Positions 20,546 through 40,890 of a stretch of 64,000 nucleotides of DNA are shown in pieces. How positions within the stretch are numbered: the first letter of the stretch is position 1; every line of letters starts with the position of its first letter. The stretch is from an uncultured Chloroflexia bacterium (GTDB lineage: Bacteria; Chloroflexota; Anaerolineae; Anaerolineales; E44-bin32): NCBI GenBank assembly GCA_963777165.1, contig CAVZPO010000022.1, positions 12,082 through 76,081 on the forward strand, read 5' to 3'. Below the pieces are notes generated by a model, which was not told the DNA's origin, made no database searches, and saw only the letters and a program-made list of their open reading frames with translations. Position numbers and translations under genes: made by a program.

Positions 20546-21041
20546 GTTGGCACCGCACGCGGCATGATGTGAGGGATCGGGATACTCTCTCAGCCGCATG
20601 CCGACCATCATCCCCGGACGGTCCTCTCAATCGCCATCGGACGGCTATCAAGTGGTGCCGCGGGCGACTGTTCGCTGAGCTGCGTGTCCCACAACGGCAT
20701 TTTGCCACGAGAGAAGTCCCCCCTCGGCTTTTCCGAGTTTCCGATCCAGGTGTAAGGCGGCCGCTGGCGCGGGCTCTTACGTGTTCTGGGAGCCAGGAAC
20801 CGGTCAGCCCTCCGACGGGCAGTTGTCGGCGGACGACGGGAGAAGAGCCAGGTGTCTGAGAATACCCGGGGATTCCCCCATGGAGCCAGGCCCATCGCTC
20901 CACGGACTGAGGGGACGGGTCGCCCTTTCTGGTCTTGCGGCTTGAATCTCGGCGGCCGGTGAACGCCGTCATGGTACAGTACGCCGCGATCCTGAGTGAC
21001 CAGCCCGCTGCGGGGCACCTCGAGGCCTGCGACGCCCTTCC

Positions 21042-21710: not shown

Positions 21711-21834
21711 ACCATACCGTCGCGCTTGCCCAGCGCGCGTCGGGTGTTCCTTGACCCGCCTCCCGCGCCGAACTGCCCGCAGGGTCAGAAACATGAGGCC
21801 GCGTCGGAAACAGGGTGCGGAACTCCCTCCCCTT

Positions 21835-22059
21835 TCATGGGGAGGGAAGGGGTGAGGGTAGCTCACAGGCCGCGCGGATCGCTTCAAGCACAGACGACAA
21901 ATTCGTCTCAACCTCGCCATTCGTGAACCGAAGTACGCGGTATCCGCTCCGGTTCAGCGCAGCCGTGCGGGCCTCGTCGTATGCCGCCTGGCGTAGCCCC
22001 ACGTGCGAGTCTCCGTCGATCTCGATGCAAAGGCGCGCCCGTGCGCCGTAGGAATCCAC
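21835..22059 (-). pseudogene. 5'-truncated DUF559 (Vsr-like endonuclease domain) fragment
   Basis: Reads ...VVDSYGARARLCIEIDGDSHVG....YDEARTAALNRSGYRVLRFTNGEV...VLEAIRAA..LPSPLPSP*. The N-terminal third (helix plus FRRQ block) is absent and replaced by the 3' tail of the upstream copy. Confidence 0.6.
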
Positions 22060-22070
22060 AACACAGCGAT

Positions 22071-22471
22071 TCAGGAGGGCTTGCTCCCTCTCCCATCGGG
22101 AGAGGGTGGGGGTGAGGGGGTAGAGAGAGCGTCGCGGATCGCCTCAAGCACGCCGTCAGGTTTTCCAGGACCTCGGGGTTCGGGAAGCGCATGATGCGCA
22201 AGCCGCGTGCCTGGATGCGGGAGCTGCGCACCTGGTCGGCGGCCTCGGCAGACTCGCCGGCGTGGGTGTCACCGTCAACCTCGATCACCAGGTGCAACTC
22301 AAGGCAGACGAAATCGACGATGTAATCCTCGATGGGAAACTGCCGGCGGAACTTTGCACCCAGCCCACGCGCTCGCAAGTGCTGCCAGAGCACATGCTCA
22401 GCGGCAGTCTCAGCTCGCCTGAGTTTCCGGGCCAACGGAGTGAGGCGACCGTGCCCTGATGAATCTGGCAT
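22071..22471 (-). pseudogene. DUF559 domain protein, frame broken near 22155-22158
   Basis: Reads LARKLRRAETAAEHVLWQHLRARGLGAKFRRQFPIEDYIVDFVCLELHLVIEVDGDTH...RGLRIMRFPNPEVLENL. The expected tail DGVLEAIRDALSTPSPPPSPDGRGSKPS* follows in the +1 frame (stop 22071-22073). One G appears to be missing in CTG(G)ACGGC. Confidence 0.75.
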
Positions 22472-22614
22472 CGTATCCCGTTCCTTCCGTGGAAACGACC
22501 TGCTACCGTGGCCGAGGGGACTCCGTTCGCCCCCTCACCCCCCGCCACGGAGGGAGTTCGCCCCCTATCACAACCACCCTCACCCTGCCCTCCCCCTTCG
22601 GGGGAGGGAGGAGG

Positions 22615-24120
22615 TCATTCCTTCGAGCGCAAGTGCGGGAAGAGGATCACCTCGCGGATCGTCGGGCGGCCGGTGAGCAGCATCGTCAGCCGGTCGATGC
22701 CCATGCCGAATCCGCCGTTGGGGGGCATGCCGTAGCGCATCGCCTGCAGGTAGTCCTCATCCATCGGGTGCCGTTCTTCATCATCGGCGGCGTAGTCCCG
22801 CCCCATCTCGGCGAAGCGCGCCTCCTGGTCCACCGGGTCGTTCAGTTCGGTGAAGGCGTTGCACAGTTCCATGCCGGCGACGTAGCCCTCGAAGCGCTCG
22901 ACCGTCCCGGGGTCCCCCGGCTTGCTCTTCGCCAGCGGCGAGATGTCGCGCGGGTAGTCGTAGATGAACGTCGGCTGGATCAGCGCCGGCTCGACGTAGT
23001 GCGAGAGGAGCAACTCGATCAGCTTGCCGCGCGTCGACGCCTCCGCCGGCGCATGCCCCTTGGCATTCATCGCCGCTCGCAGCGACTCGGCCGATGGGTG
23101 GGCGGCGAAGTCGATCCCCGAGCGCTCGAGAATTGCCGAGCGCAGATCCTCACGCCGCCAGGGCGGAGCCAGGTCGATGGTGTGGCCGTCGTACTCGACC
23201 GTCGTTGTGCCGATGGCCTGGCGCGCCACGGCGGCAACCAGTTCCTCGGTCACCACCATCACCTGGCGGTAGTCGGCGTAGGCCATGTAGAACTCGAGCT
23301 GGGTGAATTCGGGGTTGTGCTTGAAGGACACACCTTCATTCCGAAAATCCCGCCCGATCTCATAGACGCGCTCGAGCCCGCCCACGAGCAGGCGCTTCAG
23401 GTACAGCTCGAACGAGATGCGCAGGTACAGGTCCTGATGCAGCTGATTGTGGTGCGTGACGAACGGCCGGGCCGCCGCGCCGCCGTAGATCGGCTGCAGG
23501 ATCGGCGTCTCGACCTCGATGAAACCCTGTTGGTCGAGGTACGCACGCGCGGCGCTCACCACCCGCGCCCGCATGCGGAACACCTCGCGCACCTCGGGGT
23601 TGACCGCCAGGTCGGCATAGCGCTGCCGGTAGCGCGCCTCCGGGTTGGCGAAGGCGGCGTGCACCACTCGCTGTCCGTCGACGGTCTCCTCTTTGCCGGC
23701 CGGGAGCGGCGAGACCGCCTTGGCCAGCATGCGGAACTCGGTGACGTGCAGGGAGATCTCGCCGGTCTTGGTGCGGAAGAGCGTCCCGGTCGCCTGGACG
23801 AAGTCGCCCAGGTCGAACAGGTCGGCGAACTGCGCCACCTTCTCGGCGCCCAGGTCGTCGGCCCGTAAGTAGAGTTGAAGACGGCCATGGCCGTCTTCAA
23901 CGTGAGCGAAAGTGACCTTGCCCATACGCCGCATGGAGCGCAGCCGGCCGACGACGGTCGCCGCCACCGGGCTGGCATCGGGCGCGGCATCGAATGCCGC
24001 TTGCGCTTCGGCCGTCGTGTGCGTGCGCGCCGCGGTCGTCGGGTACGGCTCCATCCCGGCGCGGCGCAGCGCTTCGGCCTTCTCCAGGCGGACTCGCTCG
24101 AGGTCGTTCAACTCAGCCAT
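22615..24120 (-). CDS. lysS: lysine--tRNA ligase, class II
   Basis: 501 aa from ATG 24120. OB-fold region VAATVVGRLRSMRRMGKVTFAHVEDGHGRLQLY. Class II motifs RDFRNEG, FTQLEFY and GGFGMGIDRLTMLLTG. Confidence 0.95.
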   Translation of the reverse strand: MAELNDLERVRLEKAEALRRAGMEPYPTTAARTHTTAEAQAAFDAAPDASPVAATVVGRLRSMRRMGKVTFAHVEDGHGRLQLYLRADDLGAEKVAQFADLFDLGDFVQATGTLFRTKTGEISLHVTEFRMLAKAVSPLPAGKEETVDGQRVVHAAFANPEARYRQRYADLAVNPEVREVFRMRARVVSAARAYLDQQGFIEVETPILQPIYGGAAARPFVTHHNQLHQDLYLRISFELYLKRLLVGGLERVYEIGRDFRNEGVSFKHNPEFTQLEFYMAYADYRQVMVVTEELVAAVARQAIGTTTVEYDGHTIDLAPPWRREDLRSAILERSGIDFAAHPSAESLRAAMNAKGHAPAEASTRGKLIELLLSHYVEPALIQPTFIYDYPRDISPLAKSKPGDPGTVERFEGYVAGMELCNAFTELNDPVDQEARFAEMGRDYAADDEERHPMDEDYLQAMRYGMPPNGGFGMGIDRLTMLLTGRPTIREVILFPHLRSKE

Positions 24121-24213
24121 GATTTCACTCTCGGATGCGGACGAGACCCGCTGCCCGGCCGGCGCCGGGCGGGAGCCCGGCGGCTGCCGGGCGGCGGCCA
24201 GAGTCAAATCCTA

Positions 24214-24250
24214 CAAAAAAAGCCCCGCGCAAGCCAGGCCGGCGCGGGGC
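24214..24250 (-). terminator. intrinsic terminator of greA
   Basis: The minus strand reads GCCCCGCGCCGGCCTGGCTTGCGCGGGGC followed by TTTTTTTTG. Confidence 0.65.
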
Positions 24251-24270
24251 ATGATCCCGGACCTGGGGGA

Positions 24271-24738
24271 CTACTTGATCTTGGCCAACTTGAAGCGCAG
24301 CTTGCCGGCCGGGGCATGCACCTCGACCTCATCGCCGACCCGGTGGTCGAGCAGCGCCTGCCCCAGCGGCAACTCGTTCGAGATCAGCCCTTGCTTGGGG
24401 TTGGCTTCGGCCGCGCCGACGATGGTGTAGGTTTCGGGCTTGTTGCCGGCTTCCTGCACGACGACGGTGCTGCCGATCTTGACTACGTCCTTCGAGCCGC
24501 CCGGCTCGATCAACTTGGCCTGCGCCAGCATGTGCTCGAGCTCGAGGATCCGGCCCTCAACGAAGGCTTGCTCGTTTTTGGCGGCCTCGTACTCGGCATT
24601 CTCGATCAACTCGCCGTCTTCCATCGCCTCGTGCAGGCGCGTGGCAACTTCCTGACGCTTCACCGTCCTCAGCTGCTCGAGCTCTTCCTCCAGCTTCTTC
24701 AGGCCTTCCGCGGTGACGTAGACGGCATGCATACTCAT
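24271..24738 (-). CDS. greA: transcription elongation factor GreA
   Basis: Contains YVTAEGLKKLEEELEQL...ENAEYEAAKNEQAFVEGRILELE and C-terminal ISNELPLGQALLDHRVGDEVEV. ATG 24738 has GAGG 5 nt upstream. Confidence 0.9.
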   Translation of the reverse strand: MSMHAVYVTAEGLKKLEEELEQLRTVKRQEVATRLHEAMEDGELIENAEYEAAKNEQAFVEGRILELEHMLAQAKLIEPGGSKDVVKIGSTVVVQEAGNKPETYTIVGAAEANPKQGLISNELPLGQALLDHRVGDEVEVHAPAGKLRFKLAKIK

Positions 24739-24818
24739 CCCGACCTCAACCTTTGGCGCCACGGTGTAGACAAAAGGACTGAGAGGATTCTCTCAGCCCA
24801 GGCGGCACTGCTGACTGG

Positions 24819-24847
24819 ATGATAGCACATCTGAAAGGGGCTGTCTA
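24819..24847 (-). promoter_or_regulatory. sigma70-like promoter upstream of greA
   Basis: Minus strand: TAGACA (24847-24842), 17-nt spacer, TATCAT (24824-24819). The 5' UTR then contains the small hairpin CTGAGAG-AATC-CTCTCAG. Confidence 0.4.
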
Positions 24848-24964
24848 GTCGAGTGAGTTCCCGCGAGGGGGGCCACAGGTGGCCCGTGGTGGCACGTGGT
24901 CCAACAAGTGGGCATCTCTGGCGTAGGACTCAAGTCCCAGCTGACGCCGCAGAGGCTGGGGGTT

Positions 24965-25705
24965 TCAGTCCGCGCCCACCGGGCGAAGGAAGCGCAGCCC
25001 GCCAGATCGCTCGAGGGTCCCGATCAGCTCGAGGTACAGGGCATTTTCGGTGGCCCAGAAGGTTGCCGACTGCGAACGGTACTCCCCGATGGAGTCGATC
25101 CACTGACGGACTTCTTCCTCGGCCAGGGGGATGGTTGCCATGACCCCGGTGGGCAGGGGGAGGTCTGCCGGCAGCACGCCACCGCGAGCGGCATAGGGCA
25201 TGTCCTGGTAATACCACAGAGGCCGGCCGAGGCGTTCCGCCGCCATGCGGGTGAGGCGGTGGTCGACATGTCCGCCGACGACGGAGGGGCAGTACAACCG
25301 GGCGTCCGGAGGGCATTTCTCCACGAGCAGGGCGGCCAGGCGAGCCACCAGCTCCTGGTCGGCCGGGTGGAGTGAGCCGAAGATGGCACCTTCATCCGGG
25401 TAGAGCGGTTCGCCGGCGGCCCAGCGGTAGACGGCGTCGGGGACTTCGAGGTGAACGGCGGAGGCGCCCAGGCGGCCGCAGGCCATGCGGTCCTCCGCCC
25501 TTCGGGCGGCGATCGGCGAGCCGGCCCCGCCCCAGCGCCGGTGGAGCTCGACGGCGAAAGGCGTGAGCTCGCCGACCGGTGTATCCCCGGCGCAGACGGT
25601 GACGACTGTCACGCCCTCATCGTTCGCCGTCTGGCGTGCGATCAGGCCGCCGCAGGAGAAGACGGCATCGTCGAGGTGCGGCGCCAAGTAGACGTGGGAC
25701 GCCAT
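24965..25705 (-). CDS. PIG-L / LmbE family deacetylase
   Basis: N-terminal LAPHLDDAVFSCGG, and the later HVDH motif (GGHVDHRL). TATAAT ends 7 nt before the ATG, so the transcript may be leaderless. Confidence 0.85.
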   Translation of the reverse strand: MASHVYLAPHLDDAVFSCGGLIARQTANDEGVTVVTVCAGDTPVGELTPFAVELHRRWGGAGSPIAARRAEDRMACGRLGASAVHLEVPDAVYRWAAGEPLYPDEGAIFGSLHPADQELVARLAALLVEKCPPDARLYCPSVVGGHVDHRLTRMAAERLGRPLWYYQDMPYAARGGVLPADLPLPTGVMATIPLAEEEVRQWIDSIGEYRSQSATFWATENALYLELIGTLERSGGLRFLRPVGAD

Positions 25706-26043
25706 GTCAGGGATTATAGCGGAGTCAGGTCGAAACTACGCGCAAGGCCCCGAAGCCCCAATACTGGCCAGTTTCTGGTTGGCGAAGGGGCAAGCCCCCA
25801 TCCCTTGGGGCCGACTGGGGCCGTCTTCCGGCCGTGATGCCGGGTCAGCGACTTCAGGGCCCGGGCAATGGCGAAGGCTGGCGCTTTGCGGTTGTCACGC
25901 GTGCCGCTGAGGCTGCTGAGATTGCAGTGTTGGGCTGTGCCCTCATTGCAGTAGGGTGTCGTCCCCTCATCCTCGACCTACCCAAGGAACTGTGGGTGCG
26001 CGCACCTGAAAGCCGGCCGCGGTCACCGCTCGCCGCGAGCTGC

Positions 26044-26099
26044 TAGTTGCTAACTGCTAATTGCCAATTGCTGATCGCTGGTTGCCAATCGCTGACAGC
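26044..26099. repeat. eight tandem degenerate heptamers (consensus TAATTGC) upstream of tRNA-Lys
   Basis: TAGTTGC TAACTGC TAATTGC CAATTGC TGATCGC TGGTTGC CAATCGC TGACAGC. Strict 7-nt period, with every unit ending in GC. Confidence 0.45.
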
Positions 26100-26105
26100 C
26101 GCCCG

Positions 26106-26114
26106 TGATAGAAT
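26106..26114 (+). promoter_or_regulatory. extended -10 promoter element TGATAGAAT for tRNA-Lys
   Basis: TGnTAGAAT ends 8 nt before tRNA position +1. No good -35 at 17 nt. Confidence 0.4.
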
Positions 26115-26122
26115 CCCGCCGC

Positions 26123-26194
26123 GGGCCGTTAGCTCAATGGCAGAGCAGGTGCCTTTTAAGCACAAGGTTACAGGTTCAAGTCCTGTACGGCCCA
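26123..26194 (+). tRNA. tRNA-Lys (anticodon UUU)
   Basis: Manual fold. Acceptor GGGCCGT/ACGGCCC. D arm GCTC-AATGGCA-GAGC. Anticodon stem GTGC/GCAC with loop CTTTTAA. Variable loop AGGTT. T arm ACAGG-TTCAAGT-CCTGT. Discriminator A. CCA is not encoded. Confidence 0.9.
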
Positions 26195-26310
26195 TTCTAC
26201 GGCGTAGCTCTCCCCACTCGGGAGGCACGTTCTCCATCCGCATGCCTCCCGGCCTAAGGGATTCGGTGAATGCAAACCGCCCTCACCCTGCGGCAGAGTT
26301 AACCCCCGCC

Positions 26311-27759
26311 ATGGAATCCCCCGCCACCTCACCTGGAACCCCATCGATGCCGGTAAGAATCTTCATCCTCTTCATGCTCCTGTTCGCCATCTCGACCAAG
26401 CGATCCGTGTCGTCCTGGAATGACGCTTCACGAATGGCAACCATCCAATCCCTGGTGGAGCAACAGACCCTGATCATTGATGATACGGCGTTTGTCGACA
26501 AGACTTCGGACACCTATGTCTTCCGCGGACACACCTACTCCAGCAAACCTCCGGCCCTGGCCATCATCGGTGCCCTTGTTTATGCCCCGATGTACCTGGC
26601 CGGACTCACCTTTGACCGCGATCCCTCGTTGCCTTACTTCCTCATCACCCTCTTGACCATCGGGACCATCTCTGCCCTGGGGCTGGTCTTCTTCTGGAAG
26701 ATGCAGGTTGACGAGTTTCGCGTCGACGTCGAATGGGCAAAGATCACGACCTTCGTTGCCGGTACCGGGACGTTGGTGCTCCCCTACTCCACCGTGTTCA
26801 ATAGCCACGCGGTTGGCGGAGCCCTTGTGCTCATCGGCTTCTACTACGCCTTCAAGGGCCCCATCCGGTCGGAGACCCGCCACGCCATCTTCTCTGGACT
26901 GCTGCTTGCCCTTGCCGGGAGCGTCGAGACGACCTGCTTGATCTTTCTCCCCTTCGCTCTCTTGATCTTCCTCAGAAGGTCGCTCAGGGATGCTCTGCGA
27001 TTTGCAGCTGCCTGTACGCCAATCGTAGTGTTCTACTTCGGCGCAAACCTCATCCTCTCCGGGAGCCTGCTCCCACCCACATTAAACGCTCCCTTGCGGT
27101 CATTGCCTGGGTCGGCATTCTCAGGCGAGAACCTGTCCGGGCTGACCAGCCACGCGACTCTCGCCGACGGCTTGGTCTATGCGTTTCACATGCTGATCGG
27201 CAATCGGGGGCTCTTTTCCCACACACCGATCCTTCTCTTCGCTATCCCGGGGGTCGTCCTAGCCTACAGGCTCAGAAGATCGCAGTTGCCCTATTCGGAC
27301 ACTCTGTTGCTTGTGCTGGCCTGCTGCCTGTTCATCGGACTGGCGATCCTGCGGACGAACAACTATGGTGGCAACTCCTTCGGGGTCCGATGGTTCGCAA
27401 CGATCATGCTGATCCTCTTTCTTCCCATCGCGTTCCTCTCGGAAGAGATGGGGTCGAGAGGGTGGTTGCGCTCTCTATTCTGGGTGGTCAGCGCGCTGTC
27501 AATCGCCATAGCCCTGGTTGGCTCCTACCGACCCTTCCTTCCCTCTCCGAATCCCGTCCCTGGATTGCCCGGAATCGTTGATAACACCATGTGGCTCGCG
27601 ATCGTGAGGATTGCGACTCTCTCCACGCCGCTGGGGAAGGTGCGCTTCCTCCTCGTCGCCGCAATCGTGTACGCCGCGTTCTTCTTGCTCAAGAGGGGCC
27701 ACGATCGGAGCAGCTTGAGAGGGCCGGCCCCCTCATTCCCCGCGCAATCCTCCGGGTAG
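26311..27759 (+). CDS. GT-C fold membrane glycosyltransferase (PMT_2/ArnT-like)
   Basis: The start is set after the tRNA (ATG 26311, alternative 26347). The first-loop motif SWNDASRMATIQSLVEQQTLIIDD....TSDTYVFRGHTYSSKPPA is followed by more than 10 TM segments. Confidence 0.75.
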   Translation: MESPATSPGTPSMPVRIFILFMLLFAISTKRSVSSWNDASRMATIQSLVEQQTLIIDDTAFVDKTSDTYVFRGHTYSSKPPALAIIGALVYAPMYLAGLTFDRDPSLPYFLITLLTIGTISALGLVFFWKMQVDEFRVDVEWAKITTFVAGTGTLVLPYSTVFNSHAVGGALVLIGFYYAFKGPIRSETRHAIFSGLLLALAGSVETTCLIFLPFALLIFLRRSLRDALRFAAACTPIVVFYFGANLILSGSLLPPTLNAPLRSLPGSAFSGENLSGLTSHATLADGLVYAFHMLIGNRGLFSHTPILLFAIPGVVLAYRLRRSQLPYSDTLLLVLACCLFIGLAILRTNNYGGNSFGVRWFATIMLILFLPIAFLSEEMGSRGWLRSLFWVVSALSIAIALVGSYRPFLPSPNPVPGLPGIVDNTMWLAIVRIATLSTPLGKVRFLLVAAIVYAAFFLLKRGHDRSSLRGPAPSFPAQSSG

Positions 27760-29358
27760 CTAGCGTCCGAAGATCGCGTAGTTGGAACCTTCGATCAAAG
27801 GGGCTTGCGGCGGTCTTTCGTGCCGGCTGAGACTCTGCGGCCTGTCAACCCAAATGTAGACTTGATAGTCGTTCTCGTCCCACGTGTAATCCCTCAGGTA
27901 GTACTTGGTCAACCGGAACTTCTCGTTCGACGAGTAGATCGAGACGCCTAGGTCTCCAACCTTCGACCCAATCTCCCGCCAATTCCGGTTGTAGGGGAAG
28001 CCGAAGATCCCCTCAATCGCCTCGCCGCTGCTCAATGCTTCAGACATCCTGCCGAAGACATAGGTCTTGCTGTTCCAAGGGTATTCGGGCGTGGCATTCA
28101 CAAATGCCTGGTAGTTGAAGGATGTTGCTGACAGGCCCACCGTCAAGATGATCGCCATGGAGATACCGGGGTAGCGCTCCAGGGCATGCTCCAGGGCCAC
28201 CGCCAACCCGACAAGAAGCGGGGTCATGAAGGTATAGATGTGGGTCAAGGGCATCGCGAACCACAGGCCATACGCCGTGAAGGAAATCAGCAACCACAGG
28301 TCCAACGCCACATCGGCCCGCCCCCGGCCGGACTCCGGTCCTCGCCGAATGAGCAGGCTGCCCGCCATTGCCGCACCCACCAGCGTGCTTGCGTAGACCA
28401 GAAGTCTGACGCGTTCCACGTGGAGGATCCGGCCGACGACGAGTCCGGTCAGCAACACCACCATCACCACAACAACCCGGCCGCCTTTCTTCATCCGGGC
28501 TCCTGCGAACACCGAGAGACCCAGGAACAGAAGGATGAGGAATTCCTTGGAGTGATAGATCGCCAGCAGCCTCAGGCTGTAGTACAACGAATCGTAACGA
28601 AACTCCGAGGTGATCCTCTGGCCGAGCAAGTACGAAGCGGTGGATGAGAACTCGGGATTGAGGATGAAGGGGATATAGAAGACGCCGCTGACCAAGGCCA
28701 AGGGCGCCAGGTAGTAGAGGAGGCTCGTCCCGCGCCGCTCGGATCGAACGCTCTGCGTCGCCAAGAACAGGGCGATCGGGACGATGAAGCTCAGCGCATC
28801 GTAGTGGAACAACAAGGCCGCGCCGGACAAACTCCCTGCGGTCACAAGCCGCCATGTCGCACCGTCTTCCAGGTGGCCGATGAATTCGTAATAGGTAAGG
28901 ATCGACAGCAAGACGACAAAGGATTGGTATTGGGCGACCCTGGAAAAAGCCAGGAACAACCCCGACCCAGCCAACAGGAAGGCGGCGATCGAGCCTGCGC
29001 GTCTTGACCAGTATCGGGCACCCAGTAGGTAGACGGCCACAACCGAGAGGATCCCTGCCAGGAGAAACGGCTCGCGGAGGAAGCCTTCAGGCTGGTCCAC
29101 CTTCCCGAGAACAATCCCGTTTACGGCATAGGTCAGCAGATACTGCAGAGGGCCCTTCGACCTGGTCAAGAGGAATTGCAGAATACCCTGGTTTCCGAAC
29201 AGGTAGTCCTGGGCGGCGACCTCGTCGCCCTGGAAGTTCGAATAACCGAGACTTGCAGCCCGCAGGACGGTGTTCACTCCCGCGAAGGCAAGGAGCGAGA
29301 TCATGGAGATCCGTCTCCACGTCTCTCGGCGCTGATTACCGACCAGAGAGCTGGCCAT
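27760..29358 (-). CDS. GT-C fold membrane glycosyltransferase (GT39/ArnT-like)
   Basis: 532 aa, polytopic. First loop FQGDEV. The C-terminal soluble domain is rich in Y/W. Its stop abuts the stop of the convergent gene (TAG|CTA). Confidence 0.7.
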   Translation of the reverse strand: MASSLVGNQRRETWRRISMISLLAFAGVNTVLRAASLGYSNFQGDEVAAQDYLFGNQGILQFLLTRSKGPLQYLLTYAVNGIVLGKVDQPEGFLREPFLLAGILSVVAVYLLGARYWSRRAGSIAAFLLAGSGLFLAFSRVAQYQSFVVLLSILTYYEFIGHLEDGATWRLVTAGSLSGAALLFHYDALSFIVPIALFLATQSVRSERRGTSLLYYLAPLALVSGVFYIPFILNPEFSSTASYLLGQRITSEFRYDSLYYSLRLLAIYHSKEFLILLFLGLSVFAGARMKKGGRVVVVMVVLLTGLVVGRILHVERVRLLVYASTLVGAAMAGSLLIRRGPESGRGRADVALDLWLLISFTAYGLWFAMPLTHIYTFMTPLLVGLAVALEHALERYPGISMAIILTVGLSATSFNYQAFVNATPEYPWNSKTYVFGRMSEALSSGEAIEGIFGFPYNRNWREIGSKVGDLGVSIYSSNEKFRLTKYYLRDYTWDENDYQVYIWVDRPQSLSRHERPPQAPLIEGSNYAIFGR

Positions 29359-29552
29359 TGCCTTTTCGATGTGCCCCAGCGGGCCCGCCGCTTAGCTCCA
29401 CTCGGGAGCCGCCTTGGGCCCCAACCGGCATCCATAACGGACGCCACGACGGCCCGCTAGGGGACGTGCCCGGACCGCCAAGGAAGCGGTTCGGTCTTGG
29501 TGCGATTGGGACGCCCATCCGAATGTGCATGGGGCAACCACGCTCCGATCGT

Positions 29553-31040
29553 TCATGGCGTCGAGGAGGCACGCCGGAACATCCACACCTGTGCGCCCTG
29601 GTACTTCCTCGTGTCCGCAAGTTCTAGCGTGGCCATCAGATGTTCCATGAGTGCCGGACTCGGCGAACCGTGTGCCGCGACGTACCATATCCGCTCCGGA
29701 TTATGAAGACGGATGTACTCGTCAAAGGCAGCCACATCCTCGGGTTCTCCGGCAATCAACTCGACCCGCTCGCGCGAACCGAAGCGCTCGAAGTAATAGT
29801 TGAAGTAGTCCGGATGTTTGGCGAAGCCGACGATTACCCGGCTTCGCGTGGGGTCGGTCCGCTCAATGATGTACTGCACAGCTTCTCGGAATTGCTCCTT
29901 GGAGGGAACTCGGTAGTAGCCCACCAGGAAGATCATCTGGTAGAGCGCAACACCGCCAAGAACCAGCACGAAGCCTGCCTTGGTCCACCCCCGGAAAGGC
30001 AGCTTGACAATAGCCCGAGAGAGTAGCAGGTAGGCTGCGGGGAGGGAAACGATCAGGTTTCTTTGGGTATAGATCGGGGTGCGAACGCTGGAGAAGATCC
30101 ACGTGAGGACCAGAGGGACCACGAGCCAGTACCCAAGGACGAACTCGGAAGACCCCCAGAGCGCCCTCCTACTCTCCCCCACGGTTTCCTTGTGTTGGCG
30201 GAGCTTTGAATAGAGTAGGTAAGCGTAGAGCAGCAGGACGACGACAGCCAGGATCTTCGAACGGTTGAATAGGAAGCTGATGTACGCCGGGAAGGCGGTC
30301 AGCTTCGGCGGGTCAATCCACGAGATCAGGTTGGTATGGGACAACTGCTCGACCATGGAGGGGACCCACGGGGAATACCCCACCAAGATCGCCAGATACA
30401 GTAAGGCCGCAGTCCGGAGATAGCGGGCGGTACCCGCGGCAAGCGTCAACAATCCTATGCCTTGGAGTGCCACAAGCAGCAATCCGTAGTAATGCGAGTA
30501 ACAGGTCAGAAGCGCCGTGAAGATGTACCCGAGGGCAGTGCCAATCCCGACCTTCGACTCTCGTTTGACCGAGCTCGCCACTTCCGCCCACAGCGCGGAT
30601 GAGAGCAGCGCGGCAAGCAGCACCAGCGAGTAGTTGCGGGCCTCCTGACTGAAGGAAATGGGGCACCACAGAACAGCCATCAGAAAGGCCGCGATCAGCC
30701 CTTCGCGGTAGGAAAACCATCTCCACCCAATCCAGAAGATGGCAAGGATCGAAAGGATCCCGAAGACAGCGGAAGGGAGACGCAACGCCTGTTCCGTGTC
30801 CCCCAGGGACCGCTCGACGGCAAATAGGATGATCTGGAAAGCAGGGGGATGGGTATCTGGCCTGACCCCGTTGTCGATCACCTCACCGATCGTCTTGAAG
30901 CTGCTCTGCCGCCAGCTTTCCAGTTCATCGGTCCACAGCGATTCGCTCCCGAGATGGTACAGACGGAGTGTGGCGCCAGCCAGGACGATGAGAGCGACGG
31001 TCAGCCAGATACGGGGCGTGATGTGTTCGAGTTCCTTCAT
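29553..31040 (-). CDS. glycosyltransferase family 39 (ArnT/PMT-like) membrane protein
   Basis: The N-terminus LRLYHLGSESLWTDELESW...THPPAFQI...RLPSAVFGILSILAIFWIG is the canonical GT39 start with the DE motif. About 11 TM segments plus a C-terminal periplasmic domain. Confidence 0.85.
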   Translation of the reverse strand: MKELEHITPRIWLTVALIVLAGATLRLYHLGSESLWTDELESWRQSSFKTIGEVIDNGVRPDTHPPAFQIILFAVERSLGDTEQALRLPSAVFGILSILAIFWIGWRWFSYREGLIAAFLMAVLWCPISFSQEARNYSLVLLAALLSSALWAEVASSVKRESKVGIGTALGYIFTALLTCYSHYYGLLLVALQGIGLLTLAAGTARYLRTAALLYLAILVGYSPWVPSMVEQLSHTNLISWIDPPKLTAFPAYISFLFNRSKILAVVVLLLYAYLLYSKLRQHKETVGESRRALWGSSEFVLGYWLVVPLVLTWIFSSVRTPIYTQRNLIVSLPAAYLLLSRAIVKLPFRGWTKAGFVLVLGGVALYQMIFLVGYYRVPSKEQFREAVQYIIERTDPTRSRVIVGFAKHPDYFNYYFERFGSRERVELIAGEPEDVAAFDEYIRLHNPERIWYVAAHGSPSPALMEHLMATLELADTRKYQGAQVWMFRRASSTP

Positions 31041-31925
31041 TCGCGCCTTGCCCCTACGTCTAGGATCAACCCGATATCATAAGCGATTCTGCCACCGGCG
31101 ATCGTGCTCCACTGTCCCTGTGCCGAGAATGCGGGCGGTCCTTCGACCCGCGGCAATGGATTGAGAAAGGCCTCCCGCGGGGTGGAACCTTCGCCGGTCG
31201 CCGACCACCTCTAACAGCCACCGACAATCCCGCCGAAAGGCGTTTTCTGCGCTGTCCCTGACCTTCGTCGGAGGACCTGATACGCGTCCGTGTCCCCAGG
31301 TGCACAGCCCGCCAGGGGGCAGGCCAGGGGCTCTGTTCCCCAACCTTGCCGCGGGCGCCAGGGTTGTTGACCTGAGCGCAGAGTCGACCGGATCGATGGG
31401 CCGATAACGTGGGCAATTGGGCTTCAAAGCTCCAGGCTGCAAGTCCGACCTCTGCACGGCCCTCCCCCTTCTCCATCTATCGAGAAGCTGCCCGTCAGGC
31501 AACTGAACCCGCCAAGGAAGGGCGGCCATCTCAGGTGACCTCGTCTCCCCGCAAGGGCGTATCTATCACGATCCAGCTCGGGGGTGTCACGGCATGTGGG
31601 GGAGATTACGCTACTCCTCCCTAGTCAGATCATTGTTGAGATCACCTCTCCTGTCAGCGGCCGATGGCTGCCAGCCCACATGCCTCACTCCGCCATGGTC
31701 CCCGTCAACGGGTACATTACGCTCGATGGCGACCGGTCAGCCGAGATCACCATGGGCGGCATGCGCAGGCGCCAGAATTTCCTCAGGGAGCTTGACGACC
31801 GCAGCAGAGATGATGCACTGAGTTTGCGCCTCCCACGCCCAGCGCCGTGGGTTTCCCTCCTCGCCACCCGGCGCTGCGTGCGAAGCGCCCGACCGGACAA
31901 AGACCTGATAGAATGCCTTGCCAGA

Positions 31926-31972
31926 GGGGGGTTCTAGGCACAAGGTTACAGGTTCAAGTCCTGTACCTCCCC
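31926..31972 (+). other. tRNA-like minihelix / internally deleted tRNA-Lys pseudogene with its own TGATAGAAT element (31906-31914)
   Basis: GGGGGGT-TCTAGGCACAAGGTT-ACAGG-TTCAAGT-CCTGT-ACCTCCC-C. The acceptor stem (6 Watson-Crick pairs plus one G-T) and the T arm are intact. The D and anticodon arms are missing. The promoter 9-mer is identical to the one upstream of the intact tRNA. Confidence 0.5.
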
Positions 31973-32039
31973 GCCGGCGGCGGGGCTCTTCATAACCTTC
32001 GGCCGCCGCCGATCTTCCCCGGCCGACCCAACCGGCGCC

Positions 32040-32945
32040 ATGGACCCCACCCTGCTCGGTGAACTCGCCTCGCTCGCCACCGCCGTGTGCTGGACCGGCT
32101 CGGCGACGTTCTTCTCGATCGCCAGCCGGCGCCTCGGGTCGATCGTCCTCAACCGCACCCGCTTGCTGCTGGCCGTTGTGTTCCTCCTGATCACACACAC
32201 GCTGGTGCTCGGCACGCCGCTCCCCCTCGACGCCGCGCCCGACCGCTGGCTGTGGCTCGGCCTCTCCGGCGTCGTCGGTCTGGCGATCGGCGATGCGATG
32301 CTCTTTCAGGCCTACGTGCTGATCGGACCGCGCCTGGGCATGCTGATGATGAGCACCGCACCGGTGATGAGCGCGCTGCTGGCGCTGGCGCTCCTCGGCG
32401 AACGGCTGCGAACTCTGGAGTGGTTTGGCATCCTGCTCACGGTGGCCGGCATCGGTTGGGTCGTCACGCGCGGCGGCGGCCCGCTTCTCGACCGCCACCA
32501 GCCGCACTACGTGCGCGGCCTGATCCTGGGCTTCGGCGCGGCCGTCTGTCAGGCCGGCGGTCTGACGCTTTCCAAACTCGGCCTGGGCGGCGATTTCCCT
32601 GCCCTCTCCGGCGTCGTCATTCGCATGCTGGCGGCGTTCGTCGCGCTGTGGGGTTGGACGCTCGTGCGGCGCGAGATCGGCGCCACCTTCACGCGCCTCT
32701 CTCAAGAACGCTCCGCCCTGCTCCCTGCCATCGCCGGCGCGATCGTCGGCCCGTTCCTCGGGGTTTGGCTGTCACTGATCGGGGTACAGCTCGCCCGCGT
32801 CGGCGTCGCCAGCACGATCATGGCGCTGCCGCCGGTCTTCCTACTTCCCATCGCGCACTTCGTCCTCAAAGAAGACATCAACTGGCAGGCGTGGGTCGGC
32901 ACGTTCGTCGCCATGGCCGGCATCGCCCTGCTGTTCCTGATCTGA
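32040..32945 (+). CDS. EamA/DMT family transporter
   Basis: 301 aa with 10 TM segments in two EamA-like halves (e.g. WLGLSGVVGLAIGDAMLFQAYVLIGP, STIMALPPVFLLPIAHFVLKE). Confidence 0.85.
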   Translation: MDPTLLGELASLATAVCWTGSATFFSIASRRLGSIVLNRTRLLLAVVFLLITHTLVLGTPLPLDAAPDRWLWLGLSGVVGLAIGDAMLFQAYVLIGPRLGMLMMSTAPVMSALLALALLGERLRTLEWFGILLTVAGIGWVVTRGGGPLLDRHQPHYVRGLILGFGAAVCQAGGLTLSKLGLGGDFPALSGVVIRMLAAFVALWGWTLVRREIGATFTRLSQERSALLPAIAGAIVGPFLGVWLSLIGVQLARVGVASTIMALPPVFLLPIAHFVLKEDINWQAWVGTFVAMAGIALLFLI

Positions 32946-33052
32946 CGCGTTGGGCCTCCGCGGGCTGCCTCGGCTCTAGCCTTGGCCGCCCGCTCCGGCT
33001 GATCCGCACGCGCGGTTCCCGGGTAGGCGTTCGCCGCCTGGCACGGCGCGCT

Positions 33053-33459
33053 TCAAACAACCCCGCTAAACGCCAAGCCGCGATCGAACAACACGACGCA
33101 CCCGTCTTCGATCACCCGCCGCGTGCCGGCATCCAACGGCGCCGATGCCCAGGCGCGATCTGCGATCGCGAACTCGACCTCCAGGCCGTCGGCATACCAC
33201 ACGCGCAGCGAGGTCACGCGCCCCAGTCCTCGCATGCCGTCCGCCGCGGCGTGCCGAAGTCGCGAAGCCACTCGGTGTTCCCGACTAGCTCAGACGGAGA
33301 CTCACACACGATGACCAGATCGACGTCCGACTCGGGTGTCGCCGCCTGGCGGGCATGCGAGCCGACGAGTGCCACGCCATGGACGTCCGGCCGCGCCGCC
33401 GCCCAGGCTTGCACACTCAGGATCAACTCGGCCACTCGTTCAGGAACAGCCGGTGACAT
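33053..33459 (-). pseudogene. nucleotidyltransferase-domain protein, frame broken at the C4 run 33221-33224
   Basis: AGGAGG RBS upstream. Contains VALVGSHARQAATPESDVDLVIV (GS...DxD NTase fold). ...EDWG then continues in the other frame as RVTSLRVWYADGLEVEFAIADRAWA...* One more G in the mRNA GGGG run restores the frame. Confidence 0.7.
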
Positions 33460-33736
33460 CCCCTCGCACCTCCTGCCGCGGCGACCGCCCGACGTCGGCC
33501 TTCCTGCGTGCGGCGCTCTGCAACTCCGACCCCGGCCAAGCATGCATGCGCGATCTCGAACCCTCCCCGAGCGTACACCCTCTCCGGTGCGACCGCATAC
33601 GGCGCTGATCCCCCGATGGCTGGGGTACCCGGCGCCGATCGGCAATCCACAATACGCCGTGACCCGTGGCAGAACCACGGGTCACGGCCTGTTGCCTTCC
33701 GCGCCGGGATCAGGCGCCGGACCTGGGCGAGCGGTG

Positions 33737-34315
33737 CTACGCCCCGTCCGGCACCGTCGCGGGCTGCGGTCGCGGATGTGCCTCGCGCCAGGCCTGGACG
33801 GCAGCGCGCAAGTCCTTGGCTGCGCCCGTCATTACCTGAGCGGCTTCACGCAGCGCGCTGCCGGCGCTCTTGACCGTCTCGAGGGCTTGGGCGGCATCGG
33901 TCACCTTACCCCCGCCGTTGAACCCGGCGTGAGCGTCGAGGATCGCGGCCGCCTCATCGTGCGAATGGTGTGCGCGGGCCATCTGGCCTTTGAATTGCGC
34001 CAACGCCGCTTCGAGGTCGCCGGTATCGACGCCGTTGGCCTTGGCCTTCTCGATCAGCCCCGCCAGCTTGTCGGCGCCTGCCTCGGCCTTGGCCAGGTTG
34101 TCGCCCTGCCGCGCCAGCCAGTCCTTCTCGCGCTCCAGCGCTTTCTCGAGCCGCGTGCCGCGGTCGCGGCTGCGCTCGGCCGACGGCGGCTGGCCCTCGT
34201 CGGCGTAGGCCGGCGTCGCCGGCACAGCCACGATTGCAGTCGCTGTCAGGGCAAGCACGAGCAGTCCGCTGGCAGTTGCCCAGATCATCTTCCGGATACG
34301 TGAAATGGTATGCAT
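33737..34315 (-). CDS. secreted alpha-helical protein, hypothetical
   Basis: Signal peptide (LLVLALTATAIVAVPATPAYA/DEG) followed by charged, helix-rich sequence. Confidence 0.6.
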   Translation of the reverse strand: MHTISRIRKMIWATASGLLVLALTATAIVAVPATPAYADEGQPPSAERSRDRGTRLEKALEREKDWLARQGDNLAKAEAGADKLAGLIEKAKANGVDTGDLEAALAQFKGQMARAHHSHDEAAAILDAHAGFNGGGKVTDAAQALETVKSAGSALREAAQVMTGAAKDLRAAVQAWREAHPRPQPATVPDGA

Positions 34316-34660
34316 CAGTGTGCCTCCTGGTTACCAGTTCTGCCTCGATTCTCCTCGCCGCTGTTATCCAGCCTGGGGGGAAATGTAAGAAGGCTGTAAA
34401 ACGGGGCAGACCGGTGACAGGCGTACCGGTCAGCGGCCGATCTCCGGACGCCATACCCGAACCGGCGTCGCCTCCGCCCGATACACCGGCACACGTCGCC
34501 GCTCCGGGATCGCGCCGACACTCGCTGGACTACACCCACCCGATGTTCGGGTTCCGCTGTGCAGGCGATCCCTCTCCGCCGGAGTCCTTCCCTGGACCGC
34601 GTCGTCGTGCATGGGTTTGGTGGTATACCTGACCCCGCTGGCCCGCGGAGTCGTCGACGC

Positions 34661-35587
34661 ATGCCCCCCACACGGTATGACGTGGTCGGTTTGGGAGTCT
34701 CGACCATCGATCTGTTGATGCAGGTGGAACACCTGCCGGCAGAGGAGGAGATCCTGCGCGCCGACGGTTTCTCCGTGCAGGGCGGCGGACCGGTCGCCAC
34801 GGCGATCGTGGCCCTGGCGCGTCTCGGTGCGCGCACGGCGATGATCGACGCCGTGGGAGATGATTGGCGCGGCCGCCTGATCCACGACGGGTTCGCGCGT
34901 GAAGGGGTGTCCACCGAACTCCTCCGGCTGCGGCCAGGATGCACGTCCGCCACCGCGGTCGTGCTGGTGCACGCGGGGACGGGAAAGCGGACGATCGTGT
35001 GGTCCCCGGGCACTGCTCCCGAACTCTCGGTCGATGAAGTCCCGTGGACGGCCATCGAACAGGCCGCCTACCTGCACGTCAACGGCCGGCACGGCGACGC
35101 ATGCCTTCAGGCGTGCCAGTATGCCCGTGGGCATGGCGTCCAGGTGTCGTTCGACGGCGGCGCCGGGCGGTACCGTGAGGAAACGCGTCGACTGATCCCG
35201 CTTAGCGATGTCTGCATCGTCGCCCGCGAGTTCGCCGCTCAACACACAGGCGAGGAGCTCGCCGAGCAGGCCGGTCCCGCGCTGCTATCGGCAGGTCCGG
35301 CGATCGTCGCCATCACCGACGGCGCCCGCGGCAGTTGGGTGTTCTCGAAGAACGGGACGCGCTTCCATCAGCCCGCCTTCCCGGTCCGAGTCGTCGACAC
35401 GACGGGATGTGGAGACTGTTATCACGGCGCCTTCTTGAGCGGGCTGATCCAGGGGCTGGATCTGCCCTCGACGGCCAGGCTGGCCAGCGCCGCGGCAGCG
35501 CTCAACGCGCAGTCGCTCGGCGGACGGCAAGCACTCCCCACGCTGGCGCAGGTTCAGGTATTCCTCGAGCAACACGCGGAGTTGTAG
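34661..35587 (+). CDS. PfkB-family carbohydrate kinase (ribokinase-like)
   Basis: YDVVGLGVSTIDLL, GGGPVATA, and the C-terminal anion-hole/catalytic motif VVDTTGCGDCYHGAF. Confidence 0.85.
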   Translation: MPPTRYDVVGLGVSTIDLLMQVEHLPAEEEILRADGFSVQGGGPVATAIVALARLGARTAMIDAVGDDWRGRLIHDGFAREGVSTELLRLRPGCTSATAVVLVHAGTGKRTIVWSPGTAPELSVDEVPWTAIEQAAYLHVNGRHGDACLQACQYARGHGVQVSFDGGAGRYREETRRLIPLSDVCIVAREFAAQHTGEELAEQAGPALLSAGPAIVAITDGARGSWVFSKNGTRFHQPAFPVRVVDTTGCGDCYHGAFLSGLIQGLDLPSTARLASAAAALNAQSLGGRQALPTLAQVQVFLEQHAEL

Positions 35588-35878
35588 GGACGGAAACTGC
35601 CGGCCACGGCAGGCGCAATTCCGGGGACGACGTCTAAGTGGGTCTTGACCCAGCGGCGGGCACCGCAGTCGTCCGGGGAGCCGGCACACGGACTTGTGCA
35701 CTCGCAGGTGGGCGATGCGGTGCGTGGAGTCGTGGCGTTCAGCCCGGGTTACATTCGTCACTGCCTGCTGAACCGGCGTCGCGATACTCTGCCCGTGGGC
35801 TCCTCCCCGATTCAAGTTCGGCCGGGGCGAAAGGCCGTCCGGTCCACCGCCGGTCCCAGGTCCAGGCGAGAGGATGGG

Positions 35879-36400
35879 ATGATGGAAGGCAAGGTTCTGG
35901 TGGCCTATGCCACCAAGTACGGCGCCACGCAGGAGATCGCCGCGGCCATTGGCGACGCGCTGAGCAGCGCTGGGCTGAAGGTCGATGTGTTCCAGGTCGA
36001 TCGTGTGAAGGACGTCGCGACTTATCGGGCTGTCGTCCTTGGCAGCGCCGTGTATGTGGGTCAGTGGCGCAAGGAGGCGGTCGCGTTCCTGGTGGCGCAC
36101 GAGAAGGCGCTGTCCGAACGGCCGGTGTGGCTGTTCTCCAGTGGACCCTCCGGGAAGGGCGACCCGGTGCAATTGACGAGCGGGTGGAAGTTCCCCGAAG
36201 CTCAGAAGCCCATCGCCGAACGCATCCACGCGCGGGACACGGCCTTGTTCCACGGCGCACTGGATCCGGCGAAGCTCAACCTGCCCGAGAAGCTCATCCT
36301 CAAGGGGGTCAAGGCGCCCATCGGCGATTTCCGCGACTTTGAGGCGGTGCGCGCCTGGGGCCAAACCATCGCTGCGGCGCTGAAGCAACAAGGCGGATAG
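35879..36400 (+). CDS. flavodoxin-domain protein (HemG-like)
   Basis: ATG 35879 has a GAGAGGA RBS. KVLVAYATKYGATQEIA and VVLGSAVYVGQW are flavodoxin FMN-binding blocks. Confidence 0.8.
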   Translation: MMEGKVLVAYATKYGATQEIAAAIGDALSSAGLKVDVFQVDRVKDVATYRAVVLGSAVYVGQWRKEAVAFLVAHEKALSERPVWLFSSGPSGKGDPVQLTSGWKFPEAQKPIAERIHARDTALFHGALDPAKLNLPEKLILKGVKAPIGDFRDFEAVRAWGQTIAAALKQQGG

Positions 36401-36595
36401 CGGCACCGCGCCCTTACGCTTGGCCGCACGCGCCGGCGGATCCGGGGCGGGCCCATAGGCCCACGTTCGCGATCCACCGCATGTTCTTCACCTGAGGGAT
36501 CTCAGTTGGCTTCCCGCCTGAACGTCATCACCTGCCAGCTGGCGCTGCCAACTGTCAGGTGACGTCTCTTCGCGTGCCGGAGCGTTGAGTGCCGT

Positions 36596-37253: not shown

Positions 37254-37354
37254 GGCCAGTTCAAGTTAACTCATCACCCGTCCCCTCTGGCGCCCCCAAG
37301 CAGATCTCCGGCTGCCCCGGGTGTGCCGCATCCGCCGCCCCCGTAGCGATCGGA

Positions 37355-40881: not shown

Positions 40882-40890
40882 ACGAAGCCA

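Follow-up and report, generated by a model that had tools for sequence, protein, structure and literature searches.

How a block of low guanine-plus-cytosine (GC) DNA came to lie between a tRNA-Lys gene and a second copy of part of that gene is the question raised by a stretch of 64,000 nucleotides from an uncultured Chloroflexia bacterium (contig CAVZPO010000022.1, positions 12,082 to 76,081), referred to here as the window. An earlier, sequence-only reading of this DNA had proposed a horizontally acquired island integrated at the tRNA gene, and both empty sites in relatives and a strong compositional deviation now uphold that proposal. Positions 26195-31937, the 5,743 bp between the end of the tRNA gene and the distal repeat copy, are probably a genomic island that entered tRNA-Lys(UUU) by site-specific recombination and is now without a recombinase of its own. 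The features that delimit the locus are as follows.

26106-26114, plus strand: TGATAGAAT, an extended -10-like box read from the sequence, 8 nt 5' of tRNA-Lys; putative tRNA promoter
26123-26194, plus strand: tRNA-Lys(UUU) gene (ARAGORN; Rfam tRNA, 71.3 bits), the probable integration target, its 3' part being the left attachment site (attL)
26160-26188, plus strand: 29-mer GCACAAGGTTACAGGTTCAAGTCCTGTAC, left copy of an exact repeat (tRNA positions 38-66)
31938-31966, plus strand: 29-mer GCACAAGGTTACAGGTTCAAGTCCTGTAC, right copy, exact and in direct orientation; displaced tRNA-Lys 3' fragment and core of the right attachment site (attR)
31969-31985, plus strand: hairpin CCCCGCCGGCGGCGGGG, likely terminator of tRNA-Lys, which directly follows tRNA-Lys in empty sites
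32040-32945, plus strand: EamA-family transporter gene (Pfam EamA, 4.6e-35), native right neighbour of tRNA-Lys

The tRNA-Lys gene, its displaced fragment and the empty site

ARAGORN and Rfam agree that tRNA-Lys(UUU) is the single tRNA of the window, and over the aligned region it is identical to the tRNA-Lys of two relatives with an empty site, L007 and L008. The 29-bp direct repeat reported earlier for this gene proved exact: the window contains two copies, and none of 100 dinucleotide-preserving shuffles yielded a match even with 3 mismatches permitted. In tRNA numbering the 29-mer runs from G38 to C66, covering the 3' strand of the anticodon stem, the variable loop, the T arm and 2 bases of the acceptor 3' strand. 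Past the 29-mer the tRNA gene reads GGCCCA and the distal copy reads CTCCCCGCC, leaving the fragment without the last 6 nt of the tRNA. Similarity is weaker beyond the 29-mer (26147-26211 against 31925-31989, 78% over 65 nt).

The low GC noted earlier, and the composition check proposed along with it, both gave a clear result. GC content of the island is 0.600, compared with 0.666 ± 0.012 in 94 non-overlapping windows of equal size (minimum 0.643; z = -5.7), and its tetranucleotide distance is 0.325 against 0.128 ± 0.016 (z = +12). At third codon positions (GC3) the three large genes of the island have values of 0.75-0.78, against 0.84-0.89 in neighbouring genes.

With the EamA protein (32040-32945) as an anchor, 23 related loci were collected, 7 from genomes and 16 from metagenomes. 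The named loci are all Chloroflexota metagenome-assembled genomes, one of them Candidatus Aquidulcis (class Ca. Limnocylindria). Collinearity with the window extends to both sides of the site in L007, whose EamA protein is 92% identical (window 16550-26194 with L007 1-9925; window 31932-41748 with L007 9885-19708), and the extra 5.74 kb of the window sits exactly between the tRNA 3' end and the distal repeat. In L007 and L008 (EamA 93%) the tRNA-Lys gene is followed directly by caag-CCCCGCCGGCGGCGGGG and then by the EamA start codon; in L017 (EamA 60%) tRNA-Lys likewise adjoins EamA. The tRNA-Lys/EamA junction, whose inspection in relatives had been suggested as a check, is thus uninterrupted in all three loci. 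The empty site is therefore real and old, and the window has an insert whose limits coincide exactly with the repeat. Since even the distant L017 has tRNA-Lys beside EamA, the empty state is ancestral.

The same place is occupied differently in L003 (EamA protein 98% and right-flank DNA 93% identical), where ~5.7 kb of low-GC DNA, unrelated in sequence to that of the window, encodes a bPH_2 protein and an AbiEii toxin. No similarity was found by blastn or tblastx between the window island and other islands at the tRNA-Lys site. The regions upstream of EamA in L005 and L001 were considered as further islands and rejected: they hold core-like genes with host GC3 and are explained as rearrangements.

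Some observations concern the surroundings of the site. The lysyl-tRNA synthetase gene lysS, greA and a gene for a PIG-L-family deacetylase lie beside tRNA-Lys on the opposite strand (22615-25705), in an order kept in L027/L030. At 50-80 nt 5' of tRNA-Lys is a short run of 4.6 copies of a TGCTAAT-like heptamer (26041-26072), which might act as an upstream promoter element, and a related gctagc/ttgcca-rich stretch occurs at ~9745-9800 of L007. Just 3' of EamA, L003 has ~2.7 kb more than the window (L003 8263-10994, window 34434-34509), a second indel. Further GC dips (0.57-0.63) occur in the window at 2500-5500, 54500-56000 and 59000-61500; the first of them includes an M29 aminopeptidase gene (4037-5248) with a GC of 0.56 and a GC3 of 0.68.

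Island ends and the hotspot in relatives

The element-side sequences at the two ends of the island are the following.

26195-26310, plus strand: left island arm, 116 bp from the tRNA 3' end to gene 1, with hairpin GGGAGGCA...TGCCTCCC; no counterpart in empty sites
31906-31937, plus strand: element-side arm of attR, TGATAGAATGCCTTGCCAGAGGGGGGTTCTAG, which aligns with an arm conserved upstream of the tRNA-Lys fragments of relatives

In L003, L010, L012, L022, L023 and L037 the tRNA-Lys fragments are preceded by a conserved arm, 'cTGATACAATgcc.GACACTGGGGCTyTTAA', and the sequence conserved 3' of fragments, 'ccaaccgatccacgctcaagagcccgcc...', contains a hairpin. The right site of the window consists of a diverged member of this arm family, ccTGATAGAATGCCttGcCAgaGGGGggTTcTAG, followed by the 29-mer; it retains GATAgAATGCC (the GATAnAATGCC box of the family) at the usual distance, to within 2 nt. 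The TGATAGAAT at 31906-31914 is identical to the box 5' of the real tRNA, which also stands 5' of tRNA-Lys in L007, L008 and L027. The left arm gives a predicted RNA fold of -24.6 kcal/mol (z = -1.6) and recurs at 98% identity in L037, an independent assembly in which a tRNA-Lys fragment, not the full gene, precedes it.

As an observation on the arms in general, TGATACAAT (TGATAGAAT in the window) is found in the arm 5' of many displaced fragments, at ~5737 in L003, ~9735 in L010, ~5702 in L012, ~9865 in L022, ~967 in L023 and ~601 in L037, and is the same extended -10-like box as that 5' of tRNA-Lys. The box may serve as an outward promoter or bind a protein, or it may be left over from an origin of the arm in a copy of the tRNA gene.

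The right site is worn. The bases equivalent to the anticodon loop read TTCTAG, compared with TTTTAA in the tRNA. In empty sites GGCCCACAAG follows the 29-mer; the displaced copy in the window has CT instead, a net loss of 8 bp. The observation in the sequence-only reading that the repeat stops short of the acceptor 3' strand, ending before GGCCCA, was therefore correct and is explained by this loss, the displaced fragment being decayed DNA without function. In L003 and L012 the rightmost fragments are shortened in the same way, reflecting either shared history or recurrent slippage between CCCC runs. The CCCCGCCGGCGGCGGGG hairpin, which follows the tRNA in L007 and L008 (-18.5 kcal/mol in the L007 copy, z = -3.5), is found after the rightmost fragment in all relatives. 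When 31915-31995 is folded as RNA, GGGGGG of the arm pairs with the CUCCCC created by the 8-bp loss, and an extended T-arm hairpin forms (-35.2 kcal/mol, z = -2.3), a fold that may be due to chance.

A mismatch-tolerant search for the tRNA 3' half located such halves stacked upstream of EamA in L003, L010, L012/13, L022, L023 and L005; L024, L027, L033 and L034 contain tRNA-Lys 3' halves as well. The positions are listed.

L003: 32 (the real tRNA), 3759, 5764
L010: 6563, 8098, 9762
L012/13: 4065, 5729
L022: 4400, 9892
L023: 994
L005: 169
L024: 334, 4211, 5518, 7302, 9851
L027: 6784
L033 and L034: also present

In most fragments identity to the tRNA extends from the anticodon loop (CTTTTAA) through the 3' end (GGCCCA). 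Between the tRNA-Lys 3' halves of relatives lie tandem islets whose cargo is unrelated to that of the window: a 1020-aa Eco57I/MmeI-like type IIG restriction-modification enzyme, a ThsB-type TIR protein, AbiEii, an alpha/beta hydrolase, a GH10 enzyme and a DUF8292 protein. The anti-phage genes among these (type IIG enzyme, ThsB-type TIR and AbiEii) were placed at 1795-6489 of L010 and 1963-2499 of L003.

One islet of ~1 kb is widespread and absent from the window. It carries the gene of a 135-aa membrane protein with a weak DUF8292 match, 77-87% identical across genus-level relatives and located mostly just 5' of the rightmost tRNA-Lys fragment (L027 6088-6495; L003 5205-5609; L022 9180-9575; L023 22-423; L012 1922-2323). 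The possibility that 31041-31937 of the window is a decayed copy of this islet was rejected, as alignments were at the level of shuffled sequence and tblastn gave E values of at least 0.6.

Growth of these arrays is recent next to the island itself. L037, a separate ENA assembly, is 98.1% identical to window 26148-28155 and has the same left junction (GGCCCAttcttcggcgtggctctcccc...), preceded by the canonical arm and a tRNA fragment instead of the whole tRNA. In this sibling strain, which comes from another sample, a further element has therefore since inserted into the tRNA regenerated by the island of the window. A chance repeat or an assembly chimera was rejected as the origin of the structure, since L037 has the left junction independently at 98% identity. 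L037 (at 2628) is also without window 28156-29366, an internal deletion of 1.2 kb in gene 2, which points to variation or decay of the cargo block within the population.

The resemblance between the window and L003 raises a different account, in which the cassette between tRNA-Lys and EamA was swapped by homologous recombination through conserved flanks and the tRNA fragments are fossils of far older integrations. The two loci have right flanks that are 93% identical and share the shortened fragment, yet differ wholly in cargo at a similar length (~5.7 kb). Genes for surface glycosylation, moreover, are classic content of replacement flexible islands. The element-side arms of the window and L003 differ far more than the flanks do, however; the repeat of the window is exact; and the insertion in L037, fresh, of site-specific type and with a canonical arm, lies immediately to the left of the island, showing integration to be ongoing. 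We regard replacement as quite unlikely.

No remnant of an integrase or excisionase turned up in the island genes or in 31041-31937, whose principal stop-free stretches (50 codons or longer) were compared with Pfam and PHROGs at E ≤ 1. Among the other islets no integrase was found except at L022:3452-4399, which encodes a tyrosine integrase (Phage_integrase, 2.5e-24) and whose TGA stop is the base before the tRNA-Lys fragment at 4400. In tblastn this integrase found nothing in the whole 64-kb window (best E 0.38), in keeping with the earlier statement that no integrase or excisionase could be recognised. The L022 gene forms the end of a 20-kb IMG/VR provirus with genes for terminase, portal, head protease and major head protein, L022 1-4399 corresponding to L039 1-16362 (IMGVR_UViG_3300031746_005941). 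That the integrase stop abuts a tRNA-Lys fragment within a provirus argues that a temperate phage uses tRNA-Lys. Further genes of the provirus encode a D12 methyltransferase and an HTH_36/DnaA_N replication-like protein, and at 0.8-0.89 its GC3 resembles that of the host.

Cargo of the island and origin of its glycosyltransferase block

Between the two arms the island contains the following.

26311-27759, plus strand: gene 1, polytopic membrane protein of predicted GT-C fold, 482 aa (470 aa from 26347 in public records)
27760-29358, minus strand: gene 2, GT-C glycosyltransferase of the PMT_2 family (GT39/ArnT-like), 532 aa (Pfam PF13231, 1.1e-12)
29553-31040, minus strand: gene 3, PMT_2-like GT-C glycosyltransferase, 495 aa (weak PMT_2 match; homologues)
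31041-31583, no strand assigned: ~540 bp with no detectable gene or homologue and no codon-position GC signal
31584-31937, plus strand: small conserved open reading frame (ORF) of 117 aa at the right end of the island (phmmer), its TAG stop abutting the distal repeat

All three large genes encode GT-C glycosyltransferases. Gene 2 exceeds the PF13231 gathering cut-off (48.9 bits; cut-off 26.1). Gene 3 falls below the same cut-off (1.9e-4, 22.1 bits), as it does those of the NCBIfam mannosyltransferase (3.9e-10) and Agl23 (1.5e-9) models, but it has 522 homologues, and PF13231 is present in nearly all of the 120 listed. Gene 1 has no Pfam match, and its NCBIfam match, to the LA_3751/LA_3752 putative glycosyltransferase (1.7e-14), lies under the family cut-off; its assignment as a GT-C enzyme is by predicted fold. 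The AlphaFold model of gene 1 (predicted local distance difference test 89.5, predicted template-modelling score 0.92) gave, in a Foldseek search of the PDB, GT-C proteins as all 30 of the 30 best matches (ALG12, EmbA/B, STT3/PglB, AftB, Pmt4 and ArnT), with template-modelling scores up to 0.58, the value for ArnT. The sequence-only reading had described three PMT/ArnT-like glycosyltransferases; that all are GT-C stands, and the closer likeness of gene 1 to PMT/ArnT holds for fold only and not for sequence.

GT-C enzymes characteristically have a catalytic acidic residue in the first extracytoplasmic loop, use a sugar linked to polyprenyl phosphate as donor and modify targets in the envelope, on the outward-facing side of the membrane. 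For gene 1, 92 homologues were found; in its alignment with 38 homologues (A1), from which the model was made, D67 is nearly invariant and S77, K79, P80 and P81 are invariant. By sequence, genes 1-3 matched no solved structure, and exact-sequence look-ups of gene 2, P0004 and P0093 returned none on record. A polyprenyl-phosphate-sugar synthase, reported earlier as missing from the cargo, was indeed found neither in the island nor among the neighbouring ORFs scanned.

Of the ~900 bp to the right of gene 3 that had been described as having no convincing ORF, the first part fits that description. Homology to the block of L024/L027 stops near 31085, and 31041-31583 gave no Pfam or PHROG match in the open frames scanned, no Rfam match and no significant local alignment to regions flanking other islands. 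The second part, 31584-31937, does hold a conserved small gene: against 1.84 billion representatives phmmer found 8 homologues at E ≤ 1e-3 (best 2.7e-13, 46% identity), which have a conserved core in common with it (alignment A3), and its coding pattern is mild (GC1/2/3 of 0.65/0.51/0.72). The ORF appears from its sequence to miss the N-terminal ~20 residues of the family, and its C-terminal third, which traverses the attachment-site arm, has no homology to the family. In another metagenome, L034, a homologue (P0213) ends 25 nt 5' of a tRNA-Lys 3'-half fragment. No Pfam model matches the family, and the AlphaFold model is poor (54.8 in the local distance difference test), insufficient for a fold search. 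A search for non-coding RNA in the island with Rfam in E-value mode gave only the tRNA and one chance-level match, and promoter and terminator scans gave counts not above those of shuffled sequence.

Homologues of this ORF lie within clusters of small same-strand genes with an XRE-type regulator. Together with the use of the same tRNA-Lys site by a prophage with a tyrosine integrase, this setting would suit an island that is a decayed prophage like that of L022, stripped of integrase and structural genes and retaining the glycosyltransferases as lysogenic-conversion cargo. We consider such an origin very unlikely: the open frames of 31041-31937 gave no meaningful PHROG match, the three large genes encode glycosyltransferases and not phage structural or packaging proteins, the island and the L022 prophage share no similarity and differ in their att-site arm, the 29-mer has 0 matches in IMG/VR, and in other genomes the three genes stay together as a conserved unit that is not next to phage genes.

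That block has recognisable relatives. The closest homologues of gene 1 (72-73% identity) occur in the same arrangement (gene 1 on the plus strand, two PMT_2 genes on the minus strand) in L024-L030, at ~70% nucleotide identity to the window. L027/L030 have the same genes upstream as the window (lysS, greA, PIG-L deacetylase, tRNA-Lys), and there the block is preceded by the 1-kb DUF8292 islet plus a tRNA fragment; in L024 five tRNA-Lys fragments in a row stand before it. The window, L024 and L027 are alike in that gene 1 begins ~107-116 bp past a tRNA-Lys 3' end. Related GT-C genes are found next to tRNA-Lys-like fragments in two further loci, a 59% homologue in L031 and, for gene 3, a 78% homologue in L033.

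Between the window and L027, protein identity is 64-73% for the block and 74, 78, 59 and 53% for the core proteins LysRS, GreA, PIG-L and ATP-grasp, respectively. GC3 in L027 is 0.68-0.75 in the block and 0.71-0.76 in core genes; in the window the block lies 0.07-0.14 below core genes. The block therefore looks native in ~60%-GC members of the group and foreign in the 67%-GC genome of the window. Its native-like GC3 and its recurrent place by tRNA-Lys 3' ends in these relatives make another member of this Chloroflexota group (Ca. Limnocylindria) the likely donor, as opposed to a foreign phylum. Both copies of the 29-mer carry the T arm of the window clade (ACAGGTTCAAGTCCTGT) and not that of L024 or L027, which suggests that the immediate donor was closer than either and is unsampled. 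The same genes at the same locus with native composition had been named beforehand as a finding that would speak against transfer. In part this is what was seen, since more distant relatives do carry the block by tRNA-Lys 3' ends (L027/L030, L024-26), with native GC3 in L027; transfer is not thereby refuted, and the donor pool is identified. A separate observation from these loci is that an ATP-grasp/acetyltransferase gene pair lies between greA and PIG-L in L027 (2964-4714) and, inverted, ~14 kb away in the window (39134-40875), a local rearrangement between lineages.

The donor data permit a more specific version of site-specific integration. In a ~60%-GC relative in which the block was native downstream of tRNA-Lys, an element at the tRNA could have excised imprecisely or via a second attachment-like site; the circle would have taken along its own right end (small ORF, arm and core) as well as the neighbouring tRNA 3' end and the block, and could then have integrated into the empty tRNA-Lys of the lineage of the window. 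Such a capture would account for the missing integrase, and a circle ordered arm, core, GGCCCA, 110 bp, block and, further on, small ORF would, on recombining with tRNA-Lys, give the observed order of tRNA, block, small ORF, arm, fragment and EamA. In L024 and L027 the block does follow the rightmost fragment, with none after it, and has native-like GC3, and the like distance from tRNA 3' end to gene 1 there and in the window agrees with the scheme. The 116-bp left junction of the window, by contrast, has no significant similarity to the L024/L027 junctions, and the window-clade T arms place the immediate donor closer than L024/L027. On balance, capture by aberrant excision is possible, though on the doubtful side.

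Alternatively, the island may have been present in the ancestor of the clade and been lost from L007 and L008 by excision or by recombination between the repeats. The tie of the block to tRNA-Lys in several genus-level lineages, a protein divergence of the block equal to that of core genes, and the net 8-bp loss common to L003 and L012, which could mean an old occupied site, would all accord with this. Set against them are the empty site of the distant L017, a block GC3 that has not ameliorated to that of the host, and the exactness of the 29-bp repeat in the window, compared with 7 mismatches in the equivalent fragment of L003, which argues for a recent event. Furthermore, excision following the 8-bp loss would leave a broken tRNA, yet the tRNAs of L007 and L008 are intact. 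Ancestral presence with later loss is thus rather unlikely.

Probable site-specific integration and its meaning

Recombination into tRNA-Lys was most likely of tyrosine-integrase type and centred on the anticodon loop. Elements with such an attachment site would integrate repeatedly, each insertion regenerating the tRNA and shifting the older 3' fragment and its island rightward. The island of the window would have been mobilised in trans, in the manner of cis-mobilizable elements, or would be a stranded remnant, its integrase lost or never present. Today it is probably immobile, because its right site has TTCTAG in place of the TTTTAA of the loop and because, with 8 bp missing from the fragment, the acceptor strand is gone.

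Several points weigh against entry by site-specific recombination. A recombinase or excisionase was detected neither in the island nor elsewhere in the 64-kb window, and integration is consequently read from architecture; the damage to the right attachment site makes present-day mobility doubtful. The left arm of the window is unlike the 'ccaaccgatccacgctcaag' arm common after the fragments of most other islands. In the prophage the element-side arm is formed by the end of int and is unlike the 'TGATACAAT...CACTGGGGCTTTTAA' arm found in the small islands, for which its integrase is at most a candidate recombinase. The right junction of the island is seen in the window alone, and the sequences compared are all metagenome assemblies. 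Finally, a tRNA fragment to the right of the block was not found in L024 or L027, where the block may simply be native chromosome and not an element.

A regenerated target gene and a displaced fragment mark the ends of tRNA islands in the Islander approach, and sites centred on the anticodon are among the attachment-site classes recognised (Hudson, Lau & Williams 2015, PMC4383910; Williams 2002 cited there). The window island resembles Islander-type islands in having an intact tRNA at one end and a displaced direct 3' fragment at the other, in an identity that at the hotspot typically extends from the anticodon loop to the 3' end, as in the anticodon-centred class, in its absence from close relatives and in its atypical composition. 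It differs in having no integrase gene, which Islander demands as a filter, in a fragment without the acceptor 3' strand and in its very small size (5.7 kb). Every feature by which tRNA-integrated islands are recognised is present save the integrase.

Closer still in kind is the ssrA array of Dehalococcoides, also Chloroflexota, in which 15 islands have no integration module and are proposed to be cis-mobilizable and to have spread by accretion (McMurdie et al. 2011, PMC3146451). Those islands are likewise of low GC, stacked in tandem 3' of one small-RNA gene and each bounded by a direct repeat of the 3' end of that gene, with a short conserved motif beside the repeat and a sizeable fraction lacking an integration module (PMC3146451). 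Here, however, the target is tRNA-Lys and the recombinase known at the site is a prophage tyrosine recombinase, in place of the CcrB-like serine recombinase DsiB; the block of identity is ~29-45 bp as opposed to 20 bp; and the cargo consists of glycosyltransferases and defence genes where Dehalococcoides has reductive dehalogenases. By sequence the window island matches the descriptive definition of a cis-mobilizable element, being flanked by att sites and holding three GT-C genes and one small ORF with no recombination or transfer functions, its mobilisation being putative.

The cargo can be compared in the same way with the PMT_2/GT39-GT83 enzymes of the GT-C superfamily (ArnT and protein O-mannosyltransferases). 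The island proteins are polytopic, genes 2 and 3 match PF13231 (gene 3 below cut-off), and the model of gene 1 superposes on ArnT, ALG12, AftB, PglB and Pmt4. They are unlike those enzymes in that the family of gene 1 is unnamed and has no Pfam model, and in that the island provides no synthase for the polyprenyl-phosphate sugar.

A broader reading would make the tRNA-Lys of Limnocylindria-type Chloroflexota a cassette platform, loosely integron-like. Islands of 1-6 kb without an integrase, each ending in a conserved recombination site of ~60-100 bp (arm plus tRNA 3' half), would accumulate with the newest next to the tRNA. An integrase from elsewhere in the genome or, for instance, from a prophage would shuffle them in trans, and they would supply defence and cell-surface genes, the GT-C block included. 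The TGATAnAAT box of the arm, equal to the -10-like box of the tRNA, would act as an outward promoter, transcribing the tRNA 3'-half fragment and/or restoring expression of downstream genes. Taken jointly, trans-shuffled small islets and an outward promoter form a picture that we place on the unlikely side.

In the one recent paper on Limnocylindria consulted (PMC13212565), no description of a tRNA-Lys hotspot of this kind was found. The island itself is real but ordinary, and nothing about it contradicts current understanding: the missing integrase and the truncated repeat, which seem odd in a single sequence, become ordinary features of decay once relatives are compared, att-flanked islands without an integrase being common at the hotspot. 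The hotspot as a whole is a tidy system of very small integrase-less islets with conserved ends and a promoter-like box that mimics that of the tRNA, and it is well resolved, with empty sites, alternative islands, tandem arrays and a resident prophage in uncultured freshwater and sediment Chloroflexota. Within it, the GT-C block travels with or adjoins tRNA-Lys in several related genera and varies even between strains that are 98% identical. Such variation would fit strain-level variation of surface glycans, a trait usually linked to pressure from phages and grazers.

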